This document shows, one piece after another, positions 1-34,299 of a stretch of 64,000 bases of DNA. The DNA lies in IMG/VR virus record IMGVR_UViG_3300049063_000065, positions 307 through 64,306 of that record; one strand, given 5' to 3'. Numbering within the stretch: position 1 is the stretch's first letter; each line of letters opens with the position of its first letter. The translations under genes and the position numbers were made by a program. Below the pieces are notes generated by a model. It ran no database searches. It worked only from the letters and a program-made list of their open reading frames with translations, and had not been told where the DNA came from. Origin of the DNA: a virus.

Positions 1-8
1 ATCTTCCT

Positions 9-197
9 ATGAAGCGAGAAGTGGAGGATACGCACATCTATTTCCCCGTCAAGGTACTGAATGGGATACGTAAACTTGCCCGAGAGAACCGGCGCTCAGT
101 GTCAGCGGAGATGATCATTGCGGCTGAACGTTATATCGCGGCGTCTAAGCCCGAGAACGGACGTCTATCACACGGGAAAGAAGAACAGATTAAATGA
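9..197 (+). CDS. Arc-like ribbon-helix-helix DNA-binding protein
   Basis: 62 aa; IRKLARENRRSVSAEMI matches the Arc/RHH pattern. ATGA overlap with the next gene. Confidence 0.7.
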   Translation: MKREVEDTHIYFPVKVLNGIRKLARENRRSVSAEMIIAAERYIAASKPENGRLSHGKEEQIK

Positions 198-406
198 CCC
201 TAACCAGCAATCTCCGCTACCGCGTCATCGCAATCGGCGACAACTACCACTGGATCGATCGCCAGACCAATCAACCAGTGCCTTACGAGAACGGCGACAC
301 TGCGCAATTCTCTTCACTGGACAAGGCGATTACCGCGTTTATCGACGGGAAGCTGACAGTGAAGAGGAATAAGATGATGGATCGATTGAAAGGTGAGGAA
401 CGATGA
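194..406 (+). CDS. Hypothetical protein
   Basis: 70 aa ORF coupled by 4-nt overlaps to the neighbours on both sides. Confidence 0.6.
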   Translation: MTLTSNLRYRVIAIGDNYHWIDRQTNQPVPYENGDTAQFSSLDKAITAFIDGKLTVKRNKMMDRLKGEER

Positions 407-597
407 CATTTCGACTAGTAGCTGTGTTGGGTAACTCACTAATAGCCATAGTGCTGTTTACGTGGTCCTTAGTGGACCCAAAGCGGCGACAGACACTTAT
501 CTGCTACGCTATTTGGTTCGAGCTAGTTTCTCTCGTATTCGTGATTGGCGCTATTGCCATTCATACAGGTGCTTATCCACTTTGGAATAATAAATGA
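403..597 (+). CDS. Small membrane protein (2 predicted TM segments)
   Basis: Two hydrophobic stretches; coupled to the downstream glycosyltransferase gene. Confidence 0.6.
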   Translation: MTFRLVAVLGNSLIAIVLFTWSLVDPKRRQTLICYAIWFELVSLVFVIGAIAIHTGAYPLWNNK

Positions 598-2642
598 CAG
601 ATAAAATCTCAGTTCTAATCCCTAGTCGCAACGAAACCTATCTCAACCAGACGATCCAATCCTGTTTCGACAACGCCGCCGGGGAAATCGAGGTCGTCGT
701 CACTTTAGAGGGTTACTGGCCCTCCGATTGGAAAGACATTACCGCGCGTTACTCCAACCTGCACACCGTCCACCACGGCGAACCGCGAGGGCTACGCGCG
801 GCTATCAACTCCGCCGCCGCTTCTGCTATCTCTCGGGGTGCGCGATACCTGCTTAAACTCGACGCGCACTGCATGTTAGACCAGGGGTTTGACGAGAAGC
901 TGAAAGTCGACATGGAGGATAACTGGATTGTCGTCCCGCGGCGCAAGCGTCTCGATGCGGAGAACTGGCAAGTACAGGACGTAGGCAAACCCGACATCGA
1001 CTACCACTACATCTCCTTCCCTGATAATCCGAATGACTTCGGCGGCGCGGGATTGAATGGAAAGGTTTGGGAGGAGCGCGCAAGGGAACGCGCCGGTAAT
1101 CCTGAATACGACATTGACGATGAAATGTCGTCTCAAGGATCGTGCTGGTTTATGACCGCTGACTACTTTCGGCAACTGGAACTCATGGACGAAGCGAGCT
1201 ATGGGCCATTCTGGAATGAGGCGCAGGAACTTTTCCTTAAGTGCTGGCTCTCCGGCGGGCGCGGGGTGATCAACAAGAAAACATGGTACGCACATCTACA
1301 CAAGGGCAAGGACTACAAAGGCACCACGGGTAAGAGTGGGCGTGGTTATCGTCTCGACGAATCATGGCTCACCCAAGGCCGCAATCACACGATGAAGTGG
1401 CTCTATAACGAAGCATGGGCCAGACAGGCCTTGCCGTTCAAATGGTTAATTGAGAGGTTCTGGCCGGTGCCGGGGTGGCCGGAGGATTGGGAAGTAAGGA
1501 TATATGGAGACGTAAAACAGAAAGTCGCATTTGGTTTGCGGCCTGACGCTAACCCGGTCGGAAGAATCGAGGCTCCGATTTCGTCGCTGGAAATAAGCTC
1601 CAATGGCTTACTATTCCTCCTTTGGGCACGCTACGGAATCGGCTTCGACCATCCCAGTCAATACGTTAACGTGCTCCCGGCTCTCAGGGACAAGGTTCTC
1701 AATAATTCACTGGACATCGTGGTAACTAACCACGAATTAGGTGTCGGCAATCCCTTTCGCGGTAAGAAGAAGCGACTACAGGTGGCTTATCGCTACGGCG
1801 GAAACGGTGAGAAGGTTGTAGTTGAACGCGACGAGAAGGACTGGTTGATTATCGGGCAGATGCAGAGGCTTGACGTGCGTGACGGCGAGAACCCGATTCA
1901 GCAGATGCCGGAAGGGTTCGCGGAAGCGGAGAGTCGTGCGAAGCCGTACCAGGAGGCAGTCATAGCCCAGCGTCCCGCCCTCTACGTTCCCGGCGGCGTG
2001 AACACCCTCGTCCCGACCACGCCCACCGCCCTCAACGACTACCTCATCCGCAAGTTCTCCATCTCCGACCGTCGCCTGCGCGCTCCAATGCCGATTGAAC
2101 TGCGAGACTTCCATCGTGACAACTTGGCCCAACTGTTTGCGGAGTTGGGGTTCAAGCGCGGCGCGGAAGTCGGCGTCGCGGAAGGGATATATAGCGAGAT
2201 ACTGCTGAAGGCGAATCCCGAGTGCGAACTCCTGCTGGTCGATCCGTGGCACGCATACAGCGACAATCCGCAGAACAAGTCTAAGGAGAAGCACGAGTTT
2301 GCATATAGAGAAGTCTTACGCAAGACGAAAGACTACGCGGCCCACGCTGTCATGCAGGTCAGCATGGAGGCGGTACAGGATGTAAAAGAGGGATCGCTCG
2401 ACTTCTGCTACATCGACGGCAACCACTCCTTCGACTATGTGATACAGGATCTTATCGAATGGTCCAAGCGCGTCCGTTCAGGTGGGATCGTCTCAGGCGA
2501 TGATTACTACGCTCTCGACGAGAAACGCTGGGGTGCAGGGCCAGTGGAAGCTGTACAAGCGTATACGAAAGCGCATCGGATTCCGATCTGGTTCATCTTT
2601 CAGGGACACAAGTCGGTTGATTTTATGTGGGTGAAACCATGA
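594..2642 (+). CDS. Multidomain glycosyltransferase: GT-A (ppGalNAc-T/GT27-like) + lectin-like domain + class I SAM methyltransferase
   Basis: GT motifs ISVLIPSRNE, LDAHC (DxH), ELFLKCWLSGG...WYAHLHK. Middle segment WARYG...GNPFRGKKKRLQVAY. C-terminal GAEVGVAEG and YIDGNHSF...GGIVSGDDY (Methyltransf_24-like). Confidence 0.85.
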   Translation: MTDKISVLIPSRNETYLNQTIQSCFDNAAGEIEVVVTLEGYWPSDWKDITARYSNLHTVHHGEPRGLRAAINSAAASAISRGARYLLKLDAHCMLDQGFDEKLKVDMEDNWIVVPRRKRLDAENWQVQDVGKPDIDYHYISFPDNPNDFGGAGLNGKVWEERARERAGNPEYDIDDEMSSQGSCWFMTADYFRQLELMDEASYGPFWNEAQELFLKCWLSGGRGVINKKTWYAHLHKGKDYKGTTGKSGRGYRLDESWLTQGRNHTMKWLYNEAWARQALPFKWLIERFWPVPGWPEDWEVRIYGDVKQKVAFGLRPDANPVGRIEAPISSLEISSNGLLFLLWARYGIGFDHPSQYVNVLPALRDKVLNNSLDIVVTNHELGVGNPFRGKKKRLQVAYRYGGNGEKVVVERDEKDWLIIGQMQRLDVRDGENPIQQMPEGFAEAESRAKPYQEAVIAQRPALYVPGGVNTLVPTTPTALNDYLIRKFSISDRRLRAPMPIELRDFHRDNLAQLFAELGFKRGAEVGVAEGIYSEILLKANPECELLLVDPWHAYSDNPQNKSKEKHEFAYREVLRKTKDYAAHAVMQVSMEAVQDVKEGSLDFCYIDGNHSFDYVIQDLIEWSKRVRSGGIVSGDDYYALDEKRWGAGPVEAVQAYTKAHRIPIWFIFQGHKSVDFMWVKP

Positions 2643-2857
2643 TTAAAACAGCAAAAGAGGCGCGTCATTTATTTGACCACGGAAGTAAGACCGTAGACGA
2701 AGTTTTGGAACTAATAGAACGAGCAGCTAGGCGCAATAGTCGCTATGTTCAGTTTGATGGTTGGCCCAGTGACGAGGTAGTAGGTGAGTTAAAGCTACGA
2801 GGCTTTAGCGTTACCTTGTCGGAGGTGTTAAGTCCCTCAACTAAGATTTTCTGGTGA
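2639..2857 (+). CDS. Hypothetical protein
   Basis: ATG at 2639 overlaps the GT stop (ATGA); lies within track ORF 2627..2857. Confidence 0.55.
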   Translation: MIKTAKEARHLFDHGSKTVDEVLELIERAARRNSRYVQFDGWPSDEVVGELKLRGFSVTLSEVLSPSTKIFW

Positions 2858-2863
2858 TACCTA

Positions 2864-2872
2864 TGCTATCAT
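2864..2872 (+). promoter_or_regulatory. Extended -10 promoter (TGcTATCAT), probably leaderless for the second GT gene
   Basis: TG-N-TATCAT ends 9 nt before ATG 2882; no SD. Confidence 0.45.
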
Positions 2873-2881
2873 CCCCGCCCG

Positions 2882-4570
2882 ATGGCATTCCCCGCGCTTT
2901 CGATCCTTATTCCCGCCCGCGACGAGCACTACTACGACATCGATCTCCTTCATCATACTGTTGCTAACGTCCTTGCAAACACTTCCGACGCCACGGAAAT
3001 TGTCATAGTTCTCGATGGGTACTCCGACCACTGGCCCAAGACTCCGCTCCCTGCTAGTCCGCGCGTCACCGTCATTCATCATCGTCAAGCGATAGGCCAA
3101 CGCGCCGCCACCAATGAAGCAGCCCGCGTAGCTCAAGGCGAGTACGTGATGAAGCTGGACGCGCACACGGCACTCGATAAAGACTTCGACACAAAGCTAC
3201 TCGCGGAGTTCGACCCGCTATGGACGGTTGTGCCGCGCCAGTACAACCTGCACGTCTTCGATTGGAAGTGTAAGCAATGCGGCGAGCGTACCTACCAATC
3301 GCCGAAACCTTCGCGCTGCGCCAAGTGCAACAGCCGCTATCACTCCCAAGTTATCGTCTGGCATCCGACTGACGGCACGGGGAAAGAGCGCGGGGTGAGC
3401 AAGGGCGGCTGGAAGCATACTGTTACTGACTTCTGGCGCTTCGACTCTAATTTAGATTTCCAGTATTGGGGAGCATTAGGAAAGAGGCCGGAGTCTCAAG
3501 GTGAGATTGCGGACACTATGAGCTTGCTGGGCGCTTGCTGGGCCATGAGACGAGAAAGGTATTGGGAGCTTGACGGCCTTGATGAATCTCTCGGCTCATG
3601 GGGCGACATGGGAACGGAAATTTCATGCAAGACACATTTATCCGGTGGCAGACTGGTAACTAATAAGCGAACGTGGTTTGCTCATTTCTTCAGGGTTGGT
3701 GGAATTGGGTTTCCTTATCCCGGAGGCGGGCGAAAGGAGATAGCCAAGGCACGAGGAAAAGAAATCTGGCTAGGCAATAAATGGCCCAAGGCGAAGTATT
3801 CGCTCGACTGGCTGGTGAGGAAGTTTGCTCCAGTGCCCGATTGGCCGCAGATCAAACCCACTGTCGGCTGTCTCTATTACACCTGCTCCACTCTCTCCGA
3901 CCCCCTTGCCACCGCCGCGCGCAATCAACTCCTCCACGCTCGCAATGGTCACGAACTCGGCTGCGTTTCCCGTGAACGCTGTGATTTCGGCGACTGGAAC
4001 ATCGTCATCAACGAGCCGCGCGGACCACTAACCATGCACAAACAAATCCTCGCCGGACTGGAGCGACTCAAGGCTGACATCGTTTTCTTCTGCGAGCACG
4101 ATGTCCTGTATCACCCTTCGCACTTCGACTTCATTCCACCTGATAAGACGAAATTCTACTACAATACAAACGTCTGGCGCGTCCGTTCCCCTGACGGTCA
4201 CGCGGTAAAAACTACTGACTGCAAACAACTATCTGGGTTATGCTGTTGGCGGGAGTTAGCCCTTGAACACTACAGGGAGAGAGTGCGACGCATCGAAGCG
4301 GAAGGGTTCAGTCGGAAGAATGGATACGAGCCGGGCACGCGCGGCCTACCAAACGGCTACGACAACTCCCCCGCTGAGTCGTGGCAATCGGAGTTTCCAA
4401 ATCTCGACATTCGCCACGGCGATACAATTACCGGCAACCACTGGACACCGGAGAGTTTCAGGAATAAGAAGTACGCCGAGGGGTGGGAGGAAACGGACGA
4501 CGTGATACCGGGGTGGCCCAAGGTGGCGGGGAGACTAGAAGAAGTATTGAAGGAATTGGCAAATGTCTAA
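2882..4570 (+). CDS. Two-domain glycosyltransferase: ppGalNAc-T/GT27-like domain with Zn-ribbon insert + second GT-A-like domain
   Basis: LSILIPARDE, LDAHT, DESLGSWGDMGTEISCKTHLSGG...WFAHFFR. CKQC...CAKC insert. C-terminal domain with VFFCEHDVLY (DxD-like). Confidence 0.85.
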   Translation: MAFPALSILIPARDEHYYDIDLLHHTVANVLANTSDATEIVIVLDGYSDHWPKTPLPASPRVTVIHHRQAIGQRAATNEAARVAQGEYVMKLDAHTALDKDFDTKLLAEFDPLWTVVPRQYNLHVFDWKCKQCGERTYQSPKPSRCAKCNSRYHSQVIVWHPTDGTGKERGVSKGGWKHTVTDFWRFDSNLDFQYWGALGKRPESQGEIADTMSLLGACWAMRRERYWELDGLDESLGSWGDMGTEISCKTHLSGGRLVTNKRTWFAHFFRVGGIGFPYPGGGRKEIAKARGKEIWLGNKWPKAKYSLDWLVRKFAPVPDWPQIKPTVGCLYYTCSTLSDPLATAARNQLLHARNGHELGCVSRERCDFGDWNIVINEPRGPLTMHKQILAGLERLKADIVFFCEHDVLYHPSHFDFIPPDKTKFYYNTNVWRVRSPDGHAVKTTDCKQLSGLCCWRELALEHYRERVRRIEAEGFSRKNGYEPGTRGLPNGYDNSPAESWQSEFPNLDIRHGDTITGNHWTPESFRNKKYAEGWEETDDVIPGWPKVAGRLEEVLKELANV

Positions 4571-4778
4571 GGAACGAGGAAGGTTGGGAGATTCGTTTCG
4601 AGAACTACGGATTAGTGACGCGCTTAAGAAGCGGTACCTATGCGATCACGTCAAGGCGGGCGCTCAGGCAGTCAAGCGTTACGACACCCCGTACGGAATA
4701 GTGGCCACATGTGAGCAGTGTCAGAGTCTCGAAACCTTGAGATTAACCGTCGCGGGTGAAGTGCTTTCAAATGGCTAA
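4563..4778 (+). CDS. Small protein with possible Zn-binding motifs
   Basis: CDH and CEQC motifs; overlaps both neighbours. Confidence 0.5.
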   Translation: MSKERGRLGDSFRELRISDALKKRYLCDHVKAGAQAVKRYDTPYGIVATCEQCQSLETLRLTVAGEVLSNG

Positions 4779-5154
4779 CGAATGCCTCGATCAATATAAC
4801 GAGCGCTCCTCTGTAACTATCACTGTTACATTTACCGACGAGGATGGCGCGTCCGTCACTCCCGACACTGCCACTTATCGCATTGACGACGAGGCGAGTC
4901 GAACGAACATTCAGCCCTCCACTGCAATCGGCTCTCTCTCTGCGAGTATTGACCTGGAAATCACCAGCGAGCAGAATGCAATTATCAGACCACGTAAGCC
5001 GTTTGAGATTCGCACCGTCACTATCGAGTTCGACTACGATTCAGGGAAACATGGGACGGCGCAATATAAATATAAGTTGGTTAATTTATATGGCGTGGTG
5101 GACGTGCCGAGTGCGAGTGTGAGTCCGTCGGCAAGTGCGAGTCCGAGTGCGTGA
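4771..5154 (+). CDS. Putative virion Ig-like protein with C-terminal (Ser-X)n tail
   Basis: Beta-rich body; ends VPSASVSPSASASPSA. Confidence 0.65.
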   Translation: MANECLDQYNERSSVTITVTFTDEDGASVTPDTATYRIDDEASRTNIQPSTAIGSLSASIDLEITSEQNAIIRPRKPFEIRTVTIEFDYDSGKHGTAQYKYKLVNLYGVVDVPSASVSPSASASPSA

Positions 5155-8763: not shown

Positions 8764-9813
8764 ATGAGATCACTAATCCCCGTAGTTGAGGAATTATCGC
8801 CTCCCTCTCTTACCGTGGTGGCGCAAACAATCTCGGCGAACGATTCCGGGCGGCTGCGATGGTCTACCTTCTTTCCTCGACAGGACGTGGACTCGGTAGA
8901 TTTACGTGAAGTAACGACGATTGACTTCCGTCCAACTTCGGATCGACGCGAATGGAACTCTCGGGGCCGCTTGATTCCCGATAAGACCCCGCCGACCCGC
9001 GAACTCTCAATCATTCCTGTGGAAGGTTATTACAAGTGGAATGAGTATGAGATGCAGAAACTGGCGGAGCGCGCGGCAGCGAACTCTGAAGTGATCGATC
9101 AAATCATTGGACGTTCCATTCCCGGCAAGGTGGCGCAGATCGTGGAAGCGAATTATCGCCGCATCGAAGTTGACGCCTTCACCGCCTGGGCTACCGGAAC
9201 CAATGTGGCAATGAACCCGCAAACGGGGCAGACTACCGTGTTCAGTTTCGGTTTCCCGGCGGATCGCCTAACCACTGCTGGCACGGCATGGGATGATCCC
9301 AGTCAGAACGCCTACGATCTCTTGATTAGCTTCCTTGAGGACGCGATTGACAAGGTTGGTCCAGTGGTAGGCGTCGTGCTCAGGACCGCGCTGCATCGCG
9401 CCATCCACGCCGATGCGCCAAATGGGCCGCTCGGAACAATTATCCCACGCGGGCGAATTGCCGAACAGGTCAGCGACGACCTCGGTATCCCCTTCAACTT
9501 CTTCCTGTTCGACGACACGCTCGAAGTATTTACCGACGGCGGCACCGCTACCGTTCCGGCGAATGTTTGGCCTGCTGGCTACATCGCGGCGGTTCCATCA
9601 GGCGGTGTAGTCGGGCGCACTGCTTTCGCTCCCGTGAAGCGTGCAATGGAAATGGTCAGGTCGCTGCCGAAGGCCGGAATCGATCAGCGCGGACAGACGG
9701 TGTACTACGATGAGGCCGTGATGGGCCGAGATCTAACCGTGGAAGTACAGGTCAATCCGTTGACGATTCCCAACGAGCAAAAACTTCGCGTCGAGAACAC
9801 GTTGGTTACATAG
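8764..9813 (+). CDS. Major capsid protein (lambda gpE-like, HK97 fold)
   Basis: 349 aa; FFPRQDV, RRIEVDAFTAWATG, AGTAWDD; syntenic position; SD aaggag. Confidence 0.8.
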   Translation: MRSLIPVVEELSPPSLTVVAQTISANDSGRLRWSTFFPRQDVDSVDLREVTTIDFRPTSDRREWNSRGRLIPDKTPPTRELSIIPVEGYYKWNEYEMQKLAERAAANSEVIDQIIGRSIPGKVAQIVEANYRRIEVDAFTAWATGTNVAMNPQTGQTTVFSFGFPADRLTTAGTAWDDPSQNAYDLLISFLEDAIDKVGPVVGVVLRTALHRAIHADAPNGPLGTIIPRGRIAEQVSDDLGIPFNFFLFDDTLEVFTDGGTATVPANVWPAGYIAAVPSGGVVGRTAFAPVKRAMEMVRSLPKAGIDQRGQTVYYDEAVMGRDLTVEVQVNPLTIPNEQKLRVENTLVT

Positions 9814-10083: not shown

Positions 10084-10503
10084 ATGTGGTTTAAGAAAGT
10101 CAACAATCGACTCCTGAGACTGTTCAGTAATAACGGTCGCACTTATGGTGCGTTTCAGTTTGGGATTGACGCCGGTGGGAAGCCTATCGTCATTGGGATG
10201 GATTCGGAATTAGTGCTGGACACCTTATTCACCAACGGCTCCGCGTCGGGCTACGGCAAAGGGTCAATTGCAATGATGCGCGCCGGAGGGATTCGCGTTG
10301 TTGACGCCGACGGTCTCTGGCAGACACCGACCATCACCACCGTGAGTCAGAGTGCGTCGCCGTCAAGCTCCGTGTCGCCCAGCGCGTCGTTATCACCTAG
10401 CGCTTCAGCTTCCTTGAGCGCTTCGCCAAGCGCGAGCGTGTCGCTATCGCCGTCGCCAAGCGCATCAGCATCACCCAGTTCATCGGCAAGTCCGAGCGTG
10501 TAG
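10084..10503 (+). CDS. Virion-module protein with 52-aa C-terminal (Ser-X)n tract
   Basis: Ends SQSASPSSSVSPSAS...ASPSV; SD gagg. Confidence 0.7.
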   Translation: MWFKKVNNRLLRLFSNNGRTYGAFQFGIDAGGKPIVIGMDSELVLDTLFTNGSASGYGKGSIAMMRAGGIRVVDADGLWQTPTITTVSQSASPSSSVSPSASLSPSASASLSASPSASVSLSPSPSASASPSSSASPSV

Positions 10504-13592: not shown

Positions 13593-14456
13593 ATGTCGTT
13601 GTTTAGTGGACAAGGCCCTGGATTATGGAGCAACCGCAACACCAGCGGCAACCCAACTGAGTTTGTCTGGTTTGGCAACATCCCCGAGTTCACGCTGGGC
13701 CTCGCCTCCGACACGCTCACGCATAAGGAATCGTACACCGGACGCCGCACTACCGATGCGCGCATTATCACTGAGCTAACCGCGACCGTGGCGATTACGG
13801 TGGATGACTTCCGTGAGACCAACGTCGAGCTGGCGACTTACGGTTCGGCGTCTCAGGTGGCTACAGTCACGCTGACAGACGCGCCAGTTATCGCCGGAGC
13901 GCCGATTGTCGGCGAGCGCTATACCTCGACAACGTTGATTACTGGTCGCATCACTGGCGCAGTTGTCAAGTCAGCAGGCACGCCAGTCACCACTTCCTTC
14001 TACAGCGTGGATCAATCCGGCGTGATCGTTTTCACGGATGTCACCGGCCTCGCTGGCCCGATTACCCTGAGCGGCACAGTCGCGGCAGCGCGGCAAATCG
14101 GCGTATTCAAAAACGCAGCCCCGGAAGTCCACGTCCGGCTGGTCAACTTCAACACCGCAGCGTCGGTCATCGTCGGCGGTCAGTCAGACTTCGAGCGTAC
14201 GATAGTTGATGTGTTCAAGGTGCGGCTTGATCCGGCAGAGAACTTCAATCTCATCAACGATGAGTTTGGCCAACTAGTGCTCAACGGCTCAGCGCTGGTG
14301 GATACGACAAAATCAGAAGCCGGACCTACGGGCCAGTTCGCGCGCTTCATCTATCTCGACCCGCCGGTGCAGGCAGTGCCGTCACCGTCAGTCAGTCCGT
14401 CACTGTCGCCGTCGGCCTCAGTTTCACCTTCGGCTTCAGCGTCGCCGTCAGCCTAG
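13593..14456 (+). CDS. Major tail tube protein with C-terminal (Ser-X)n tail
   Basis: FSGQG...GNIPEFTL...HKESYTGRR...LINDEFGQLVLNG tail-tube pattern; ends PSPSVSPSLSPSASVSPSASASPSA. Confidence 0.8.
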   Translation: MSLFSGQGPGLWSNRNTSGNPTEFVWFGNIPEFTLGLASDTLTHKESYTGRRTTDARIITELTATVAITVDDFRETNVELATYGSASQVATVTLTDAPVIAGAPIVGERYTSTTLITGRITGAVVKSAGTPVTTSFYSVDQSGVIVFTDVTGLAGPITLSGTVAAARQIGVFKNAAPEVHVRLVNFNTAASVIVGGQSDFERTIVDVFKVRLDPAENFNLINDEFGQLVLNGSALVDTTKSEAGPTGQFARFIYLDPPVQAVPSPSVSPSLSPSASVSPSASASPSA

Positions 14457-21507: not shown

Positions 21508-24500
21508 ATGTTCTGGCAACTGGCCCTTCTCTCCGCGCAGATGATTCTCGGCGAGGTGACTCGTCAGCGCCCGAAGCGCATTTCGTTCAAGGAGTTCATT
21601 GATAATAACGAGCCGAGTGAGGTGCGTCCTATCGTCTACGCGGGCGGCACGATCGAACTCACTCCCTCACGTCAATGGTACGGCGACTTCCTGCAACGGG
21701 CGGTAGAACGTGACTCCCAGTGGACTGATTACCTGTTCATGGGCGGGCTGGCGTTCCTGCTCGACGCGATCACGGTTGCCTACCGCTCCTATATTGGCGA
21801 GATGTTCCCTTTGTGCTACGGCCCAGACGTACATATTGAGCGGGTAACGATTGATGATCGCGTGGTCTATCAGGCGACACCGGGGACGGATAACTCAGGC
21901 GGAGGGTTTCTAATCGACGACCCGCAGGCGTGGGGTGGAGATCAACCACCGGGCAGTGGCGGGGAGTATGCGTGGTGCGATATTACGCGCGGGAATTACA
22001 GCGATGGCGCGAATACTTATCTCGAATCGCTACTGGCTGAGCCACCGAATAAGACGCCGTCATTGCGCGGAGTATCAGCACTAGTCAAACGCGGTCCATC
22101 GGGATTCACCGAATCAGGGTACTTCGCTGCTGGTGGAGTCGGGACGATTCCGAAACTGAAAGTATGGAAGGTGACGATTCGCCGCCAGCCCGACAACCTC
22201 GCCACAGGGTTCCATAAAGTCGGGCGGCACATGAATCCGATGGAGACTATCTACGAATGGTCTACGTCGCTGGAGTATGGGGCGCGCGTGCCGCTGGAGG
22301 AGTTGAATCTCGATAGTTGGCGCTCAGCGGCAGAAGACTTGCATACCGAGGGTAATGGCTGGTCAGGACGGATTGAGGCCGCTACTTCTCCGCAAGCGGT
22401 GATTGACGACGTGCTGGCGCAGATCGACGGCATTCTCGATCCCTCACCGTCACTCGGTCTCACTATGCGGCTGATTCGTCGCGACTACTCCTTCGGCTCC
22501 CTGCGCGTATTGAACCGCGACAATATCACGCGCGTCGAGCGCTTTGCACCGGGTACTTACGAGGATACGAAGAATCAAATCCGTGTCGAGTATCCCGATC
22601 AAGACAACAACTTCGAGCAACGTCCGGCTATCTACACCGACCCTGCCAATCAGCAGATCCAGGGCCGACTGGTGCCGGAGACGAAGTCCTTTCTCGGCGT
22701 AGCGGATGCTGAACAAGCTAACGTCATCGCCACGAGGGATGGACGGGCCATTGCACTCCCTCGCGCACCATTGGAATGCTTCGTCTTCCCTTCCTTCGGT
22801 CGTCTCACCTACCGTGGTGAGGTGGTGTTGTTCGAGTGGGAATCGCCATCGTTCTCTATCGTCATGCGCGTCCTCGCGATTACGCCTAACGGTCCTGAAG
22901 AGAAGGATTACCGCCTGGTATTGATCGAGGACCAGTTCTCCACCGGGTTGCGCACCTTTGGCGAACCTGACGGGACGAGGCACGAAGATCCAGGGACGGG
23001 GTTGGATACCGCGCCGCCGAGCGCAACGTGGAATGAGGCTGACTTCGCGCCTGACGGGCTAACTCTTACTCTACTGCTGGACAACACGAATCAGTTCATT
23101 CCAACTATCGAGGGAGGGATTGTCTTCGGCTCGTACGCGCCGGGTGGACAGTATGCGCGGATCTACGCAACTGAACCGGGCGGCGCGCAGACTCTCTCCC
23201 CTGCGAGGCTAGTACCGGACGCCAACAACGAGGCAACTTTCCGCTGGCCCGCGAACGGCGAAGGGAATTACGAGTTCTGCGTGCAGACGTACTCACTGCG
23301 GGGAGTGACGAACGGAGTGAAGGTTTGCGTGGATATCGACGTAGGAGTAATTGGCGCGCCGTCAGTCAGTCCGTCGGCGTCGATTTCTCCCTCGTCGTCG
23401 GTATCGGCTTCTTCGTCCCCTTCACCATCGCGCTCAGCCAGCGCATCGGTCAGCCCTAGCGCGAGCACTAGCCCTAGCTCCAGCGTAAGTCCGAGCAGTG
23501 GTCCAAGTCCGTCGTCGTCAATTTCTCCATCACCATCCGCATCTGCTTCGCCGTCGTCTTCCGTGAGCGCAAGCGACAGTTCCAGTCCGTCCTCATCGGC
23601 ATCGCCCAGTCCCGGCGGCGGCTCACCCGACACTGGTAACATTGTCTTTATGGACAGCGCTGACATGCAGCCGACCAGTGGCACGGCGACGTGGTGGGAT
23701 GGTACTACGTCGTCGGGCATGCTGATCACGTCAGGTGTTTCAGGAGCGCATGATCGAGTGTGGCAATCGTCCAATAGCGGGCGACAGATTAAGACCTTGC
23801 CGTCGACATACAGCACGCTTTCAGGTCGCGCGCGATTCCGAATCACAACAGACGCGACCAAAGGCATCCTCAGATTGTACACACCAGCAGGGGACGAACA
23901 TCTCTCAGTAGAGTACGTGGCGGGCGGTAACTTTCGTTACGTGAACGGTTCAACCCAGCGCGCAATCAGCACGGGTGGTCACATCTCCCTGAATCACTGG
24001 TATGAAATCGAAGCCGTGTTGTTTATTCACGACACAATCGGCACGGTGACAGGTAATCTTTATGATAGCGAAGGAGCGGGCACGGGCGATCTTTTGGAAA
24101 CACTTCTCTTTGGGCCGGGGGACACTAGGGATGGATCAAGCACGGCCAACAGCGCCCTATTCGGTGCCGCTGATCAAATGGAAGACTTGGCAGTTGATTC
24201 CACTGGAGAACTATATGGTCCATCGCGTATTGAAGTATTGTCGCCGAGCGGCGCGGGCAACTACACCCAGCTATCGCGGACGGGAGCCGTAAACACTGGC
24301 GCAAACTTCTCGCAGGTTAACGAGCTGCCGTTTGTGGTCAGCAGTGGCGCTGGTGGCAGTGTTACTTCGACTGGCTCCAATCAGCGAGATAGCTATGCGT
24401 TTGCGAATCGAAGTATTGTCGGAACACCGCGATGCATAGGAGTTCACGCTGCCGTGGTTCGCGCAGTTACCGGCACCTTTACCTTCAAACTGTTCGTTCG

Positions 24501-24705
24501 CGTAGACGGCGTAGACTACGACTCTGCGACCACGTTCACCGCAGCGAGTATAACCGCCATTCATAGCGTCTACCTGCAAAACAATCCAGCGACGGGTAAC
24601 GCATGGACCGACAGCGAGATCGACGGCTCGGAGTTTGGCATTCTCTGTATCGATACGAGTGTGGCAATGAAAGCGATAGCGGTTCAGGTGTTTGTGCAGC
24701 TATAA
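21508..24705 (+). CDS. Tail tip / host-specificity protein with internal 85-aa (Ser-X)n linker
   Basis: Phage-tail_3-like core (NPMETIYE, MRLIRRDY, NQIRVEYPD); Ser tract 23359-23613; C-terminal beta-sandwich region. Confidence 0.8.
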   Translation: MFWQLALLSAQMILGEVTRQRPKRISFKEFIDNNEPSEVRPIVYAGGTIELTPSRQWYGDFLQRAVERDSQWTDYLFMGGLAFLLDAITVAYRSYIGEMFPLCYGPDVHIERVTIDDRVVYQATPGTDNSGGGFLIDDPQAWGGDQPPGSGGEYAWCDITRGNYSDGANTYLESLLAEPPNKTPSLRGVSALVKRGPSGFTESGYFAAGGVGTIPKLKVWKVTIRRQPDNLATGFHKVGRHMNPMETIYEWSTSLEYGARVPLEELNLDSWRSAAEDLHTEGNGWSGRIEAATSPQAVIDDVLAQIDGILDPSPSLGLTMRLIRRDYSFGSLRVLNRDNITRVERFAPGTYEDTKNQIRVEYPDQDNNFEQRPAIYTDPANQQIQGRLVPETKSFLGVADAEQANVIATRDGRAIALPRAPLECFVFPSFGRLTYRGEVVLFEWESPSFSIVMRVLAITPNGPEEKDYRLVLIEDQFSTGLRTFGEPDGTRHEDPGTGLDTAPPSATWNEADFAPDGLTLTLLLDNTNQFIPTIEGGIVFGSYAPGGQYARIYATEPGGAQTLSPARLVPDANNEATFRWPANGEGNYEFCVQTYSLRGVTNGVKVCVDIDVGVIGAPSVSPSASISPSSSVSASSSPSPSRSASASVSPSASTSPSSSVSPSSGPSPSSSISPSPSASASPSSSVSASDSSSPSSSASPSPGGGSPDTGNIVFMDSADMQPTSGTATWWDGTTSSGMLITSGVSGAHDRVWQSSNSGRQIKTLPSTYSTLSGRARFRITTDATKGILRLYTPAGDEHLSVEYVAGGNFRYVNGSTQRAISTGGHISLNHWYEIEAVLFIHDTIGTVTGNLYDSEGAGTGDLLETLLFGPGDTRDGSSTANSALFGAADQMEDLAVDSTGELYGPSRIEVLSPSGAGNYTQLSRTGAVNTGANFSQVNELPFVVSSGAGGSVTSTGSNQRDSYAFANRSIVGTPRCIGVHAAVVRAVTGTFTFKLFVRVDGVDYDSATTFTAASITAIHSVYLQNNPATGNAWTDSEIDGSEFGILCIDTSVAMKAIAVQVFVQL

Positions 24706-24723: not shown

Positions 24724-26961
24724 TTGGCAACCTTCGAGGAAACAGTTCTAGCGCTCAACCCGGTCCTCTTCTGGCGCTGCAAGGATCTAGCCGGTAGTCA
24801 AATCACCGACTACTCCGGTAATGACTTCCACGGAGACGCCGGTCCTGTCCTACTAGGCCAGCAATCAGCAGTGGAGACTGACCCGGCAGCGCGTAGCGTC
24901 TATATCCCTAACGGGTTTGCTAATAATATCTGCGAAATAGCCGTTCCGCCCGCCGAGTTGCTATTCACGGGCAATTTCACTATCGCGTGCTTTGTGCGGC
25001 ATCAATCGTCATCGGGGTTTAAGTATCTCTTTGCGCGCGGTGGCGGCGCTGGCAGTCCAGGGGATGGCTTGCATTTTCTCACCACCGGCCTTGCCACTCG
25101 CACGCTGCATTGTTGGTTCGTTACGACAGACGGCATAACTAATACTTCAAATCAAGTCAGCGCCTCAGTCAGCCACCTCAACGACGTTGACTATTTCGCC
25201 GTCGTGACGCGCAACGCCGATGTAGTGACGCTGTATCTCAACGCGGAAGTTGTGGGCCAGGATTCAGGATTAAGTATCGACCCGCTGGAGATAGACGGCA
25301 GCGACAGGATTACGTTTGGCTCGGGAGCGAATAACCTTGGACCACTCAAAGGGTGGGCCTCGGAGTTAATGATCTTCGACTATGCGCTTACCGAAACCCA
25401 GCAGCGGGAAGTATACGAGTCGGCGCTCAACGTCATCTTCCTCAATGGCAGGAGTGACGCTAACCCGACTGCAATCCTACGCTCCAATTTCGACCCTGAT
25501 CCAGTCAGTTACCCGTGGCGACACAATTGGACCGAGATACTGACCGAGCGAATCGCCTTCCGCAGCGCAATCTCGCAGGCAGTCACCGGAAGCGAGGAAG
25601 CGACAGGAGAGAGGTTAACGCCACGCAGGGAGTTGGAGTTTACGCAAGTATTGAAGTCGCAGGCAGAGCGTCGCAAGCTCCGCGCGCTCCTCTGGGCCAA
25701 CCAGCACGCGAAGTGGTTCATCCCCGTGAGACAGTACGCGGAACAATTACTGGAACCATTAGCCACATCGGCCACTGTGACGCCGATCACTACTGCGTAT
25801 AAGGATTACGAGGATGGAAGGTGGATTGGATTTCGCGAAGTGGATGACAGCGGAAACATCACCCACTGGGAAGAGAGGGTGATTACGGCGCTTAATCCGA
25901 ACTCGGTCGAACACGAGCCGCTGGTGAATTCCTACGTCGCTTATCGCTCCTCGTGCTATCCGGTGCGACGCGCGCTGCTTCCGCCTTCACTGAGTATCAA
26001 AGGCCATACCGACATAGTGGAGGAATTGACGATCACCGCGCGTCTCCTCCCTGAAGACGAGGTCGTTCCCCCGAACCGTATTACCGCGTTCATACCAGCG
26101 ATCAAATATCGCGATTACGAGGTATTCGATGGACAGGTATGGCAATCGAACGACTGGTCAGAGGAGCGGGAGTACGAGGTTGAACGCGCGGTGCAGGAGA
26201 TGGATTTCGATACTGGGTTGATTAGGCGCGAGTCGGACACGCCGGGAGCCAGTGAGGTGTTCAGTTATCGCATGGTGCTGGATGGCCACGAGAACATTGC
26301 GCAGTTCCTCGGCTGGTTCTACGAGCGACGCGGAGCACTCGCCTATCTCTGGGTGCCGACAGCGCAAGATGACTTTGAGGTGCTTTCATCTAACACCGGC
26401 GAGCATCAGATCACGGTGCGCGATACTAATTACAGCGATGCGTTTGCACTGGCTAAGGGACGGCGGGATTTAGCCTTCGTCTATTGGGACGGGTCGATGA
26501 GGTTTCGACGAGTGATCGCTTTCGAGGGCACGGTGAATGAGACGTTGACACTGGACGCAACTCTGCCCTCATTCGTCAACTTGCGCTTCGTCTCCCTGCT
26601 GAAGTTCTGTCGTTTAGATGCTGATCAACTGGAACTCGCATGGCACACCGACAACAAGGTAGTGGCGGCGTGGCGCTTTCGAGAATTACTGACTACACCT
26701 GAAGGGACTGGACGATCTTCTCTAAGTCCGTCAGCCTCGATGAGCGTATCTCTATCGCCAAGCTCGTCGCCTTCCCCGTCCAGTAGTATCTCGCTTAGTC
26801 GTTCCCCGTCAGCATCTCCATCACCCTCGGCGTCAGAGAGTCCGTCGAGCAGTCAGTCGCCTTCGTCGAGCGAATCGGGTTCACAATCACCCAGCAGTAG
26901 CGTGAGTCGCTCGCCAAGTAGTAGTACGTCGCCGTCTTCATCGCCTTCTCCGTCAGTGTAA
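24724..26961 (+). CDS. LamG-domain / minor tail fusion protein with 81-aa C-terminal (Ser-X)n tract
   Basis: LNPVLFWR...DYSGNDFHG...TLYLNAE...ELMIFDYALT (LamG). HNW...TPRRELEF and FYERRGALAYLWVP (minor tail). Ser tract 26716-26958. Confidence 0.75.
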   Translation: MATFEETVLALNPVLFWRCKDLAGSQITDYSGNDFHGDAGPVLLGQQSAVETDPAARSVYIPNGFANNICEIAVPPAELLFTGNFTIACFVRHQSSSGFKYLFARGGGAGSPGDGLHFLTTGLATRTLHCWFVTTDGITNTSNQVSASVSHLNDVDYFAVVTRNADVVTLYLNAEVVGQDSGLSIDPLEIDGSDRITFGSGANNLGPLKGWASELMIFDYALTETQQREVYESALNVIFLNGRSDANPTAILRSNFDPDPVSYPWRHNWTEILTERIAFRSAISQAVTGSEEATGERLTPRRELEFTQVLKSQAERRKLRALLWANQHAKWFIPVRQYAEQLLEPLATSATVTPITTAYKDYEDGRWIGFREVDDSGNITHWEERVITALNPNSVEHEPLVNSYVAYRSSCYPVRRALLPPSLSIKGHTDIVEELTITARLLPEDEVVPPNRITAFIPAIKYRDYEVFDGQVWQSNDWSEEREYEVERAVQEMDFDTGLIRRESDTPGASEVFSYRMVLDGHENIAQFLGWFYERRGALAYLWVPTAQDDFEVLSSNTGEHQITVRDTNYSDAFALAKGRRDLAFVYWDGSMRFRRVIAFEGTVNETLTLDATLPSFVNLRFVSLLKFCRLDADQLELAWHTDNKVVAAWRFRELLTTPEGTGRSSLSPSASMSVSLSPSSSPSPSSSISLSRSPSASPSPSASESPSSSQSPSSSESGSQSPSSSVSRSPSSSTSPSSSPSPSV

Positions 26962-28841: not shown

Positions 28842-29363
28842 ATGAACCGACGCGAGATGATGACGACTACGGTGCTGGGCGCGGCTGGTTTCGCTACCGG
28901 GACAGCGTTCACTGCTCCGGCGTGTCCAGGTGGCGTCTCCAAGGAGAAAGCAGTCAAGGTTGCGACGCTGGTGATCGAACTTAGCGAACAGGCCGTGCCA
29001 CTGCTGGATCTCCTCGGCGCGCACGACATCGCCATCACCGTTGACGCTAAGGTTATTCCCGCGCTAGAGAAGTTGAAAGACGCGCTGGCTAACGCCGACA
29101 TCCCATCGTCACAGTCGATGTTGGCTAACGTGCGAAGCGTGCTGAGTGGCGTAGCAAAGGCACTCTCGAATCTACCTGAAAGTCCGCGCGTAATCACCGT
29201 CATGGGCATTCTCGCGTCGGTGAACATCATGCTCCTGACCGTGGAAGCGTTCATCGATTCGGAGACGCCGGTAACTGGACCCCCTCCTGGAGCAGCAGGC
29301 GCACCGAAATCACGGCCTCACATTGAGGCGATCAAGCGTGTGTTTGAGGCATCGAGACAGTAG
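28842..29363 (+). CDS. Putative Tat-exported lipoprotein
   Basis: MNRREMM twin-arginine start, hydrophobic stretch, APAC lipobox-like site; SD aaggag. Confidence 0.6.
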   Translation: MNRREMMTTTVLGAAGFATGTAFTAPACPGGVSKEKAVKVATLVIELSEQAVPLLDLLGAHDIAITVDAKVIPALEKLKDALANADIPSSQSMLANVRSVLSGVAKALSNLPESPRVITVMGILASVNIMLLTVEAFIDSETPVTGPPPGAAGAPKSRPHIEAIKRVFEASRQ

Positions 29364-29369
29364 GCGAGG

Positions 29370-29627
29370 ATGACGCTGATGGCATGGCTAAGAACAGAGC
29401 GCGTGGTTCACGATGTTGACAAGGGGAGTAATCTCGACCTGCTGGTGCGCGGGTTTCACGGGATCGGAAACCGGCTCGTGGACGCGATAGGTGGAGGATT
29501 ACAAGCAATCGCCCTCGCTCTCTCAACGCCGCAGGACAACTCGCAGCAAGTGCAGGAAGTAATCGATCGTATTCACAACGTGCGCAATAACCTTCAATCG
29601 GCAATTGATCAATCTAAGGAGAAATAA
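29370..29627 (+). CDS. Hypothetical coiled-coil protein
   Basis: 85 aa; SD gagg. Confidence 0.55.
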   Translation: MTLMAWLRTERVVHDVDKGSNLDLLVRGFHGIGNRLVDAIGGGLQAIALALSTPQDNSQQVQEVIDRIHNVRNNLQSAIDQSKEK

Positions 29628-29629
29628 CG

Positions 29630-29857: not shown

Positions 29858-29868
29858 GAGCGCTCTCA

Positions 29869-30030: not shown

Positions 30031-30043
30031 TTCTCGCAGATGA

Positions 30044-30873: not shown

Positions 30874-30889
30874 AGCAAAAGAACAGCCC

Positions 30890-31324: not shown

Positions 31325-31327
31325 ACG

Positions 31328-31756: not shown

Positions 31757-31764
31757 ATAGACAT

Positions 31765-31808: not shown

Positions 31809-31893
31809 ACGGGGTAGCTCTCCACCTGCTTCCCGCGTCCTGCGCAATTAAGCCATGCCGCTGGCCCGCAGTCACGACCACCCACTGTCCGGG

Positions 31894-34286: not shown

Positions 34287-34299
34287 TAGTCGTCCAGTC

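Follow-up and report, generated by a model that had tools for sequence, protein, structure and literature searches.

A probable virion O-glycosylation cassette in an uncultured tailed phage, with two enzymes akin to eukaryotic ppGalNAc-transferases

Two glycosyltransferase-like proteins encoded by an uncultured, siphovirus-type tailed phage raise the question of what a virus would glycosylate with enzymes that resemble the eukaryotic ppGalNAc-transferases (ppGalNAc-Ts). The phage record is complete (64.3 kb with a 127-bp terminal repeat), and the window, i.e. the whole stretch of DNA that was analysed, comprises 64,000 nucleotides. The two proteins are called GT-A (594..2642, 682 amino acids) and GT-B (2882..4570, 562 amino acids); the terms GT-A fold and GT-B fold refer to the glycosyltransferase fold classes. 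Their genes lie between those for the large terminase and the portal protein and adjoin the gene with the largest array of alternating serines, (Ser-x)n. The proteins are paralogues; two segments of their N-domains align with 37% identity (E 4.8e-19 and 8.1e-14). The answer that we consider probable is a phage-encoded cassette for virion O-glycosylation, kin to the kind found in mycobacteriophages. The enzymes are composed of the following parts:

594..1523, + strand: GT-A N-terminal domain (aa 1-310), ppGalNAc-T-like GT-A fold; D90-x-H92 at 861..869, H234/H236 at 1293..1301
1611..1856, + strand: GT-A middle beta-domain (aa 340-421), confidently modelled (pLDDT 83-95 in blocks 341-420)
2094..2642, + strand: GT-A C-terminal SAM-dependent methyltransferase domain (about aa 501-682), PF13578 Methyltransf_24
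2882..3853, + strand: GT-B N-terminal domain (aa 1-324), ppGalNAc-T-like GT-A fold; D93-x-H95 at 3158..3166, W240-G241...E246, H268 at 3683..3685
3269..3328, + strand: GT-B zinc-ribbon-like hairpin, an inserted CxxC...CxxC (aa 130-149) within the N-domain
3854..4570, + strand: GT-B C-terminal domain (aa 325-562), nucleotide-diphospho-sugar-transferase (GT-A-like) fold

Fold and motifs of the N-terminal domains

The sequence-only reading had proposed structure prediction and superposition as a check, with ordinary GT2 polysaccharide enzymes as the competing match. In the models (pLDDT 88.5 for GT-B; 76.2 overall for GT-A, with mostly 86-97 in its N-domain) these were not the best match, and ppGalNAc-Ts ranked first for both proteins. 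Among the Foldseek matches listed, ppGalNAc-Ts account for 29 of 31 rows with GT-B and for all 28 with GT-A (E 4.4e-13 to 6e-11). In the VIA structure comparison 29 ppGalNAc-T entries occupy ranks 1-29 for both proteins, with Z scores of 23.8-27.2 for GT-B and 23.4-25.8 for GT-A over 258-285 aligned residues at 16-25% identity; the rmsd is mostly 2.6-3.4 Å, with four GT-A rows reaching up to 5.7 Å. The next family follows at Z 19.3 for GT-B and 17.8 (K4CP) for GT-A, a gap of 4.5-5.6. An exhaustive scan of 48,161 chains, independent of Foldseek, gave GalNAc-T1 (26.1) and TgGalNAc-T3 (24.5), then K4CP (18.1). By these models, the eukaryotic ppGalNAc-Ts are the closest solved structures to the N-domains of both GT-A and GT-B. 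A kindred fold is not proof of the same acceptor class, as lipids, polysaccharides and small molecules are among the acceptors of GT-A enzymes with a similar fold.

At the sequence level the resemblance of GT-B to ppGalNAc-Ts is far above chance. A phmmer search of the PDB returned 16 distinct sequences at E<=1, of which 14 are ppGalNAc-Ts (T10 best, 1.2e-6), and the alignments place LDAH on LDAHC/LDSHC, W-G...E-I-S on WGGE..EIS and AHFFR on GHVFR/GHIYR. With a profile of the 41-sequence GT-B family, the top 16 of 19 matches are ppGalNAc-Ts (best 2.7e-12; best other glycosyltransferase 2.9e-5). The sequence kinship of GT-A is weak to marginal, whereas its fold evidence is as clear as that of GT-B: the single sequence found 3bcv alone (0.035), and the profile placed this plain GT2 enzyme (1.1e-5) ahead of GalNAc-T1 (5.9e-4). 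Both proteins exceed the Pfam cut-off for PF00535 (23.3), GT-A with 38.7 bits over residues 6-127 and GT-B with 61.4 bits over residues 7-117.

All motif strings quoted in the sequence-only reading are present in the translations, at the places where it had put them. In GT-A, KLDAHCML (D90, H92) is followed by GSCWFMTADYFRQLELMDEASYGPFWNEAQELFLKCWLSGG and AHLHK (H234, H236); in GT-B the order is KLDAHTAL (D93, H95), GACWAMRRERYWELDGLDESLGSWGDMGTEISCKTHLSGG and AHFFR (H268). The metal-site Asp and His and the downstream His are invariant in a 41-sequence alignment of each family, down to 52-54% identity, and also in a joint 22-sequence alignment that includes GT-A at 33% identity. This invariance argues against the highly improbable reading that the domains lack catalytic activity and act as scaffolds or, like lectins, bind Ser/Pro tails or sugars; the degenerate WGGENxE motif may be cited for it, and nothing direct speaks in its favour. 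The strict WGGENxE motif is absent from both proteins. GT-B keeps W240-G241 and E246 and retains the W-G...E-I-S of the Gal/GalNAc-T motif, and GT-A has F206-W207-x-E209-x-Q211-E212 in this region. At the GGE positions, whose residues line the sugar site of ppGalNAc-Ts, both paralogues carry other residues, so that the donor chemistry, and even that of the acceptor, may differ.

The designation "signature motifs" is too strong, since WGGENxE is kept only in part and neither the lectin domain nor the membrane anchor of ppGalNAc-Ts is present; these differences make the phage proteins GT27-like soluble enzymes and not typical members. No hydrophobic segment is present in GT-A or GT-B (maximum Kyte-Doolittle 19-residue means 1.13 and 1.15), and both begin directly at strand 1. 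The earlier suggestion that the variants FWNE and WGDM reflect a different donor or acceptor is merely consistent with the alignments, in which each variant is conserved inside its own orthologue group. Both paralogues are present in 14 of the 18 GT-positive records of the array-pattern-derived set described below, which argues for non-redundant roles without saying which.

Accessory domains and the first sugar

The middle domain of GT-A gave a weak match to PF11875 (E 9e-4, below the cut-off) and shows the conserved pattern YG...DVT...SLDI...NPFRGKKK...Y in the family alignment. The C-terminal domain matches PF13578 with E 2.5e-12 (48 bits, cut-off 26.3), and RMNT_CmcI at 0.0027, below its cut-off; the best fold match in VIA is the O-methyltransferase 5x7f from M. 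tuberculosis (Z 16.5, 161 aligned residues, rmsd 2.6, model 502..682). It is probably a sugar O-methyltransferase. The C-domain of GT-B has an invariant E405-x-D407 behind a hydrophobic strand (FFCEHD) and occurs as a standalone ORF in 11 of 39 related loci. It has no sequence-level match to the PDB or to the N-domain; in a wide VIA scan its model (323..559) matched MobA-like 2e8b (Z 11.2), IspD (11.2), GlmU (11.1) and MobA (11.0), and two-domain alignments of GT-B to K4CP and heparosan synthase 2 extend over 1..512/525. As modelled, this domain is probably a second, extending glycosyltransferase.

Which domain would add the first sugar is a separate matter. It is possible, but unlikely, that the ppGalNAc-T-like domains do not initiate, the first sugar being added by a host enzyme or by the GT-B C-domain and then extended or branched by the DxH domains on the Ser-x arrays. 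The co-retention of the paralogues would fit successive steps of this kind, and the replaced sugar-site part of WGGENxE and the autonomy of the C-domain as a module also speak for this reading. However, the match to ppGalNAc-Ts (Z 24-27) extends over the whole catalytic domain and takes in the C-terminal helical part, which forms the peptide groove in these enzymes, whereas polysaccharide-extending glycosyltransferases all remain at Z <=19.3 and the best matches of the C-domain reach merely Z 11.

Serine arrays as candidate acceptors

Over the six reading frames of the window, nine (Ser-x)>=6 arrays are found, eight of them in frame within six genes of the structural module. The six virion-module proteins contain 334 alternating Ser residues in their arrays, and four of the arrays are placed at the very C-terminus. 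Pro takes 38% of the x positions, and the others are mostly Ala, Ser or Val. The sequence-only reading had overlooked these arrays, which are the likely acceptor. They are carried by:

4756..5154, + strand: 132-aa protein between GT-B and the portal gene, phrog_912; C-terminal (Ser-x)7, aa 119-132, 5110..5151
10084..10503, + strand: 139-aa head-module protein; perfect (Ser-x)26 over the last 52 aa (88-139; 10345..10500)
13593..14456, + strand: major tail protein, phrog_807 (E 1.7e-46, residues 1-254); (Ser-x)12 tail, aa 264-287, 14382..14453
21508..24705, + strand: 1065-aa tail protein, phrog_1101 (E 9.2e-67); internal arrays aa 619-664 and 667-702, 23362..23613
24724..26961, + strand: 745-aa tail protein, phrog_1082 (E 1.2e-69); C-terminal (Ser-x)40, aa 666-745, 26719..26958
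61484..64000, + strand, open at the window end: 890-aa (Ser-x)n protein, ending at record position 283 via the 127-bp terminal repeat

The 890-aa gene spans the terminal repeat up to just before the window start and is therefore located directly upstream of GT-A on the circularised map. The protein (31.6% Ser, 13% Pro) has two arrays, aa 429-750 and aa 754-847, which together count 208 alternating Ser; this region resembles a 'serine-rich protein' model and the Ser-Asp repeat regions of ClfA, SdrC and SdrD, with every match far below its cut-off, and the N-terminal 428 aa match no PHROG or Pfam family. The 139-aa protein also has no PHROG family, and array-bearing equivalent ORFs are present in related loci L004-L010, L014 and L016. 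The small ORF orthologous to the 132-aa protein, downstream of GT-B in relatives, likewise ends in a Ser-x tail. In the major tail protein the family profile stops at aa 254, before the C-terminal array, which is shared by orthologues in relatives. The major capsid protein (8764..9813) is without an array.

The arrays and the GT family occur together beyond this phage. Of 38 viral loci found via GT-B, 34 have a (Ser-x)>=8 array within 10 kb, and one more has an array elsewhere in the record, which gives 35 of 38 GT-bearing records; the other three, 32-49% complete, show none in the available DNA. For the reverse approach, viral contigs were scanned for the DNA pattern encoding SPSASxSPS, which yielded at least 120 stretches; 80 made loci, and 77 of the 80 records were searched. 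Among the matches listed, 27 records have an array of at least 50 aa, and the GT family is present in 18 of these and in 0 of 50 other records (Fisher p 2.9e-11); the array status of most of these pattern-derived records is that of the fetched locus and not of the whole record. The co-occurrence counts in both directions lack phylogenetic independence. The nine long-array records without the GT are all <=38% complete, and in records at least 90% complete the GT is found in 4/4 with long arrays and 0/11 without (both among the matches listed). The association holds across contigs of 41-65 kb with differing gene orders.

The claim of a protein acceptor is hereby independently backed, both by the arrays on six virion-module proteins and by their co-occurrence with the GT family. 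We regard it as rather improbable that the enzymes act instead on phage DNA or, in serotype conversion or superinfection exclusion, on a lipid carrier or envelope polysaccharide of the host, with the arrays being flexible linkers common in the same lineages. In favour of such acceptors, Pfam and NCBIfam detect just the generic GT2 nucleotide-binding half, the PgaC, MftF and NodC models score 15-34 bits, far below their cut-offs, and PHROG names the methyltransferase region of GT-A 'DNA methyltransferase' (phrog_2675); moreover, DNA or host O-antigen is the target of most phage glycosyltransferases described so far, according to PMC12619734. Against such acceptors stand the position between terminase and portal beside the largest array gene, the lack of a membrane segment in both enzymes, the O-methyltransferase as best fold match of the methyltransferase domain, and the manner in which the GT family follows the arrays. 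Pfam scans of 30 other window proteins revealed no enzyme for sugar-nucleotide synthesis or DNA-base modification, so that no rival pathway is seen there.

The glycosylation of virion proteins thus remains our preferred reading, and the Ser-x tails are probably sugar-coated by GT-A and GT-B. Beyond the observed kinship in fold and motifs, the domain architecture and the arrays with their co-occurrence, we infer the acceptor residue, initiating domain, donor, order of steps and role of the coat as follows. GT-A and GT-B would be soluble cytoplasmic enzymes, each with a metal-dependent ppGalNAc-T-type domain (DxH and downstream His), which during infection would transfer sugar from a host nucleotide-sugar to the Ser hydroxyls of the disordered arrays on the major tail protein, the two distal tail proteins, the two small head-module proteins and the 890-aa protein. 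The glycan would then be extended by the second GT-A-like domain of GT-B and O-methylated by the methyltransferase domain of GT-A, giving a mucin-like glycan brush over tail tube and appendages. Such a coat could serve in stiffening or protease protection of the extended tails, in shielding or in adhesion.

Comparison with known glycosylation systems

With generic GT2 enzymes (PF00535; SpsA, K4CP, TarS) the phage proteins share the N-terminal nucleotide-binding half, above the Pfam cut-off, whereas the acceptor half and overall fold are nearer to GT27 and DxH replaces DxD. The catalytic domain, DxH and downstream His match those of ppGalNAc-Ts (CAZy GT27; human T1, T2 and T10, Toxoplasma T3), which start mucin-type sugar coats in animals, and the likely phage acceptors are Ser residues in Pro-rich, mucin-like repeats. 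Unlike ppGalNAc-Ts, the phage enzymes are viral, would work in the bacterial cytoplasm, and have no type-II membrane anchor, secretory targeting or ricin-type lectin domain; the catalytic domain is joined in GT-B to a second GT-A-like domain and in GT-A to a beta-domain and methyltransferase, G-E-N of WGGENxE is replaced, and GT-B has the zinc-ribbon insertion.

Virion glycosylation cassettes are described for the mycobacteriophages Che8, Corndog and Myrna (Freeman et al. 2023, as related in PMC12619734, PMC12363180 and PMC11256854), with glycans reported at the C-termini of capsid and tail-tube subunits (Freeman 2023, as related in PMC12619734 and PMC12363180). PMC4351075 places an O-methyltransferase and three glycosyltransferase genes within the structural operon of Corndog. 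Similarly, glycosyltransferases and an O-methyltransferase are encoded amid structural genes here, the tail-tube protein bears a Ser-x tail, and Corndog gp35 and the GT-A methyltransferase domain belong to a common Pfam family, PF13578. The glycosyltransferases themselves are not detectably related: Corndog gp36, gp37 and gp38 gave no Pfam match, a weak Glyco_tranf_2_2 and GT25, respectively, and a tblastn search of 50,697 phage records with the N-domain of GT-B gave no match at E<=1e-5 and seven weak ones at E<=1, none of them to a mycobacteriophage. The capsid and tail-tube C-termini of Corndog have no Ser-x array; here the capsid protein is arrayless, but arrays as long as 322 aa are present on fibre and tail proteins.

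In Gram-positive bacteria, serine-rich repeat proteins are glycosylated by GtfA/GtfB and the Ser-Asp repeat proteins of the ClfA/Sdr type by SdgA/SdgB; the initiating enzymes of these adhesins have the GT-B fold and belong to GT4. The phage system is similar in its long arrays, in which every second residue is Ser, and in dedicated, probably cytoplasmic glycosyltransferases encoded beside a putative substrate gene, whereas its enzymes have the GT-A fold with DxH, its putative substrates are virion proteins, and x is mainly Pro, Ala or Val instead of Asp or Ala/Val/Thr.

Gene layout and alternating-serine arrays

The phage record (64,306 bases, of which the window covers 307-64306) has direct terminal repeats and a completeness rating of 100%, and the window holds a siphovirus-type gene set. 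The genes for the paired glycosyltransferases GT-A and GT-B (protein names, not fold classes), GT-A also carrying the putative O-methyltransferase, sit inside the virion structural operon. The gene order is small terminase (TerS), large terminase (TerL), a fibre-like protein of 233 aa, a serine-rich protein of 890 aa, GT-A with its methyltransferase domain, GT-B, a 132-aa protein and portal.

Features of the phage genome and of GT-A and GT-B (window positions unless stated otherwise)
594..2642: GT-A, 682 aa
1611..1856: β-domain of GT-A (aa 340-421), small, confidently modelled, at the position of the ppGalNAc-T lectin domain
2882..4570: GT-B, 562 aa
3269..3328: CxxC...CxxC hairpin of GT-B (aa 130-149), inserted in the GT-A fold; C130, C133, C146 and C149 invariant
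Directly downstream of GT-B: 132-aa protein, Ser-x array in the C-terminal 14 aa
5368..7044: ORF of 558 aa at the portal position, no Pfam or PHROG match
8764..9813: major head protein (phrog_29), same operon as the portal-position ORF
10084..10503: 139-aa head-module protein, array in the C-terminal 52 aa
13593..14456: major tail protein (phrog_807), same operon as the portal-position ORF; array in the C-terminal 24 aa, past the end of the family profile
Within the structural operon: chaperone, 1580-aa tape measure protein, distal tail proteins
Two distal tail proteins: arrays of 82 and 80 aa
Leftward replication module: D5-type primase-helicase, PIF1-like helicase, PD-(D/E)XK nuclease, AAA_24 protein
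57221..: TerS
58733..60343: TerL
61484..64000, continued at record positions 1..283: 890-aa protein, arrays of 322 and 94 aa

Six virion-module proteins contain stretches with serine at every second residue, here called Ser-x or (Ser-x)n arrays, which the sequence-only reading had overlooked. Taken together the arrays have 334 alternating serines, with x being Pro in 38%, Ala in 19%, Ser in 12% and Val in 10% of the cases. Scanning the window in six frames for (Ser-x)≥6 gave nine places: the eight coding arrays of these proteins plus a chance match of 12 residues. The arrays are likely candidates for the acceptor of GT-A and GT-B. The gene for the 890-aa protein leaves the window at its end and continues through the terminal repeat of 127 bases to a stop 23 bases short of the window start; the gene is thus located directly upstream of GT-A. 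Since this gene crosses the end of the record, the record 'ends' represent an assembly or permutation point within the gene and not the physical ends of the genome. The 233-aa protein (60380..61081), encoded between TerL and the 890-aa protein, matches tail-fibre PHROGs over its first ca. 80 residues (E 1.7e-7), and it may be an anchor or partner of the 890-aa protein.

No tRNA genes were found in the window, and for 20 further ORFs of 111-328 aa (28842..37800 and 44000..57000) Pfam assigned no family at E≤0.001; the non-structural half of the phage is mostly beyond Pfam annotation. Searches for cultured relatives by blastn and tblastn against 50,697 GenBank phage records returned 0 matches at E≤1e-5, and tblastn with the N-domain of GT-B against the same records gave 7 partial, weak matches at E≤1.

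Relation of GT-A and GT-B to polypeptide GalNAc-transferases

Over the N-terminal ca. 320 residues GT-A and GT-B are paralogues with 37% identity. The sequence-only reading had claimed motifs of the eukaryotic polypeptide N-acetylgalactosaminyltransferases (ppGalNAc-Ts, CAZy family GT27) for both domains, and all motif strings that it quoted were found in the translations. DxH replaces DxD in the two proteins (D90-A-H92 in GT-A, D93-A-H95 in GT-B), and both sites pair with LDAHC of human GalNAc-T1. Further downstream, H268 of GT-B (AHFFR) pairs with the His of GHVFR/GHIYR in ppGalNAc-Ts and is by alignment the putative third metal ligand; H234 of GT-A, likewise a putative metal ligand, is matched to H268 only via the paralogue alignment. 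The full W-G-G-E-N-x-E motif is absent from both paralogues, which retain W(G) and the final E alone. At this site GT-B has W-G-D-M-G-T-E (family consensus W-G-Q-M/Q-G-T-E) and GT-A has W-N-E-A-Q-E, with G-E-N exchanged in both. Alignments of 41 orthologous sequences for each protein showed invariant residues D93, H95, W240, G241, E246 and H268 in GT-B and D90, H92, W207, E209, Q211, E212, H234 and H236 in GT-A. The columns of D93, H95, E246 and H268 are still invariant in a joint alignment of 22 sequences that includes GT-A.

Both proteins match the GT2 model PF00535 (Glycos_transf_2) in their N-terminal half only (38.7 bits for GT-A and 61.4 bits for GT-B against a gathering score of 23.3). 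For GT-B, 14 of the 16 PDB sequences found by phmmer at E≤1 are ppGalNAc-Ts (top E 1.2e-6). The top 16 PDB sequences obtained with the family profile are ppGalNAc-Ts as well (2.7e-12 to 1.9e-5), followed by a plain GT2 protein as the best sequence outside GT27 (2.9e-5). These alignments place LDAH on LDAHC, W-G...E-I-S on WGGENLEIS and AHFFR on GHVFR, and the likeness of the GT-B sequence to ppGalNAc-Ts is clearly above chance. With the GT-A profile, 3bcv (1.1e-5) outscores GalNAc-T1 (5.9e-4), and the sequence signal for kinship is marginal. Scanned against Pfam with a limit of E≤0.1, the two proteins showed no match to the GT60 model PF11397, no GT60 structure for comparison was found in the PDB, and no NCBIfam model came near its own cut-off.

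AlphaFold2 models were built on the family alignments, with a mean pLDDT of 88.5 for GT-B and 76.2 for GT-A (N-domain mostly 86-97). Among the Foldseek rows listed, ppGalNAc-Ts account for 29 of 31 for GT-B, the remaining two being K4CP, and for all 28 for GT-A. VIA-align of GT-B with 29 ppGalNAc-T entries gave Z-scores of 23.8-27.2 (258-272 residues aligned, rmsd 2.6-3.2 Å, 19-25% identity), and residues 1..324 of the model superpose on 134..440 of human T2. For GT-A the ppGalNAc-Ts scored 23.4-25.8. The next best were a Leptospira GT2 at 19.3 for GT-B and K4CP at 17.8 for GT-A. A Foldseek-independent scan of 48,161 representative chains gave GalNAc-T1 (26.1), Toxoplasma GalNAc-T3 (24.5) and then K4CP (18.1). 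According to the models, both N-terminal catalytic domains would have, over their full length, the GT-A fold in its ppGalNAc-T form, and at the level of the predicted structures the comparison settles the likeness to ppGalNAc-Ts for GT-A as well as for GT-B. Over both proteins, the Z-scores are 23.4-27.2 for ppGalNAc-Ts versus at most 19.3 for other glycosyltransferases. As ppGalNAc-Ts are the top fold matches, the contrary case, with ordinary GT2 polysaccharide enzymes as the best matches, is not realised. The claim of kinship stands for DxH, the downstream His and the catalytic fold, and does not extend to a strict WGGENxE motif.

The nearest structural neighbours of the GT-B model in BFVD come from uncultured phages and giant viruses and have either no name or a generic one, and none of the best ones carries a ppGalNAc-T annotation. 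Five uncultured Caudovirales proteins named 'Glycosyltransferase, GlcNAc' also match the model (Foldseek E 1.2e-9 to 1.4e-7). The fourth-ranked BFVD match is a Catovirus 'glycosyltransferase and methyltransferase domain protein', and therefore related fusions of these two domains may exist in giant viruses.

Outside the catalytic domain the phage proteins depart from ppGalNAc-Ts. Neither GT-A nor GT-B gave a Ricin_B_lectin match at E≤0.1 in Pfam. A hydrophobic stretch that could serve as type-II membrane anchor is absent from both (maximum 19-residue hydropathy, KD19, 1.13/1.15), and the chains begin at strand 1 (residue 2-6). From sequence and models, GT-A and GT-B are predicted to be soluble, cytoplasmic, GT27-like enzymes and not typical GT27 members. 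The Cys hairpin is present in GT-B and its orthologues and missing from GT-A; a rubredoxin-like model of NCBIfam matches it weakly (E 0.008), and because of it some databases name GT-B-type proteins 'Zn-ribbon', 'RpoP' or 'rubrerythrin'.

The C-terminal part of GT-A consists of the β-domain and a methyltransferase, and that of GT-B is a GT-A-like domain. The β-domain has the conserved pattern YG..DVT...SLDI..N...NPFRGKKK..L.V.Y and matches DnaJ-like_C11_C (PF11875) below the threshold. The SAM methyltransferase domain matches PF13578 (48 bits, cut-off 26.3) and, weakly, CmcI/rhamnosyl-O-methyltransferase; its fold matches the M. tuberculosis O-methyltransferase 5x7f (Z 16.5), and phmmer of this region against the PDB gave no match below E 0.4. 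The C-domain of GT-B (238 aa) has a nucleotide-diphospho-sugar-transferase fold: over 323..559 it matches MobA-like proteins, IspD and GlmU with Z-scores of 11.0-11.2, and it is also included where K4CP and heparosan synthase 2 align with both domains. It gave no Pfam match, 0 matches at E≤10 in hmmsearch against the PDB, and no similarity to the N-domain (hhalign probability 1.2%). With the sequence searches empty, the fold assignment therefore comes solely from VIA. E405-x-D407, located behind a hydrophobic strand, is invariant. In 11 of 39 related loci (L029, L031-L037, L039-L041) the C-domain is an ORF of its own (ca. 215-250 aa), and its matches in the ESM Atlas are all unnamed viral clusters (217-241 aa). 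The C-domain forms a viral domain family of its own, autonomous and without annotation, and its modelled fold suggests a putative second, extending glycosyltransferase.

Viral distribution and co-occurrence with the arrays

When clustered at 90%, at least 3,995 proteins match GT-B at E≤0.001 (7,999 candidates scored), and many of them are encoded on contigs of 62-68 kb together with a GT-A orthologue. The search with the N-domain of GT-B gave 1,163 representatives at 50% clustering, and 197 of these reach E≤1e-30. A scan of prokaryote genomes (185,579 species) with two peptide patterns yielded one GT-B relative, on the 10.7-kb contig L042 of an Anaerolineae MAG, with 47% identity and accompanied by a 246-aa Ser-x array. 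The contig probably belongs to a phage and was binned into the MAG, or else it hints at a host among the Chloroflexota; the family looks essentially viral.

Of 38 viral loci with GT-B relatives (40-60% identity, contigs of 8 to 113 kb), 34 have an array of (Ser-x)≥8 in the flanks that were fetched. In a complete 59-kb record (L032) the array lies further from the GT-B relative than these flanks reach, and the remaining three loci without an array come from records that are 32-49% complete. The reverse search started from the arrays: a DNA pattern encoding SPSASxSPS was found in at least 120 stretches of viral contigs, 80 of which became loci, and for 77 of these the whole record was searched with the N-domain of GT-B. 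Among the pattern matches listed, the family occurs in 18 of the 27 records whose array reaches 50 aa or more (including the record of L063, whose array was located separately) and in none of the 50 other records, which have chance matches or arrays below 35 aa, array status being mostly scored from the fetched locus and not from the whole record. For long arrays and the family, this corresponds to a Fisher p of 2.9e-11 among the matches listed, calculated on records that are not phylogenetically independent. The nine long-array records without the glycosyltransferase are, among these matches, all fragments of at most 38% completeness. Restricted to records that are at least 90% complete, the matches listed contain the family in 4/4 records with long arrays and 0/11 without. 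Two or more paralogous ORFs of the family are present in 14 of the 18 positive records among the matches listed.

A candidate virion glycosylation cassette and its known counterparts

The interpretation of GT-A and GT-B as peptide-initiating O-glycosyltransferases has partial support, and taking the Ser-x arrays into account makes it considerably stronger. We consider it fairly probable that the genes form a phage virion O-glycosylation cassette, in which GT27-like enzymes would act on (Ser-x)n tails. A wider reading, rather unlikely in its entirety, is that a large group of uncultured tailed phages has a true mucin-like coat, that soluble GT27-type enzymes initiate on hundreds of serines in (Ser-Pro-Ser-x)n of tail and fibre proteins, and that a viral/prokaryotic lineage is the sister or source of the eukaryotic mucin-type initiators.

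If the cassette reading holds, virion glycosylation would be widespread in environmental phages and would rely on a different enzyme family, which among those known on the prokaryote side stands closest to the animal enzymes that initiate mucin glycans. The acceptor code would be simple, with Ser at every second residue and often beside Pro, and would provide a sequence rule for predicting from metagenomes which virion proteins are glycosylated. Enzymes resembling ppGalNAc-Ts, yet small, soluble and free of membrane anchor and lectin domain, would become available for structural work and for peptide glyco-engineering in bacteria. The origin of mucin-type O-glycosylation would gain a concrete test case, and there is a bearing on phage stability, adhesion and antigenicity as well.

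To our knowledge, phage-encoded virion glycosylation has been reported only recently and only for mycobacteriophages, and enzymes initiating mucin-type glycans are generally held to be a eukaryotic invention. In the openly accessible main texts covered, no description of ppGalNAc-T-like phage enzymes or of phage Ser-x arrays was found. According to PMC4351075, phage Corndog has an O-methyltransferase, two glycosyltransferases and a putative GlcNAc-transferase (gp35-38) between its genes for portal and protease. The mycobacteriophage glycans decorate capsid and tail-tube subunits at their C-termini, as outlined in the summaries of Freeman 2023 in PMC12619734, PMC12363180 and PMC11256854. The mycobacteriophage cassettes follow the same logic and have the same gene position as the candidate cassette of the present phage, and the Corndog methyltransferase shares PF13578 with the methyltransferase domain of GT-A. 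However, the glycosyltransferases of Che8, Corndog and Myrna are not detectably related to GT-B, those of Corndog belonging to other Pfam families, and none of the 50,697 GenBank phage records yielded a mycobacteriophage homologue of the GT-B N-domain at E≤1 by tblastn. The ends of the Corndog capsid and tail-tube proteins are free of Ser-x arrays, unlike the major tail protein described here. Gram-positive adhesins with Ser-dipeptide repeats are modified by dedicated glycosyltransferases. The Ser-x acceptor architecture of the phage resembles these repeats, and the array of the 890-aa protein weakly matches the ClfA/Sdr repeat models.
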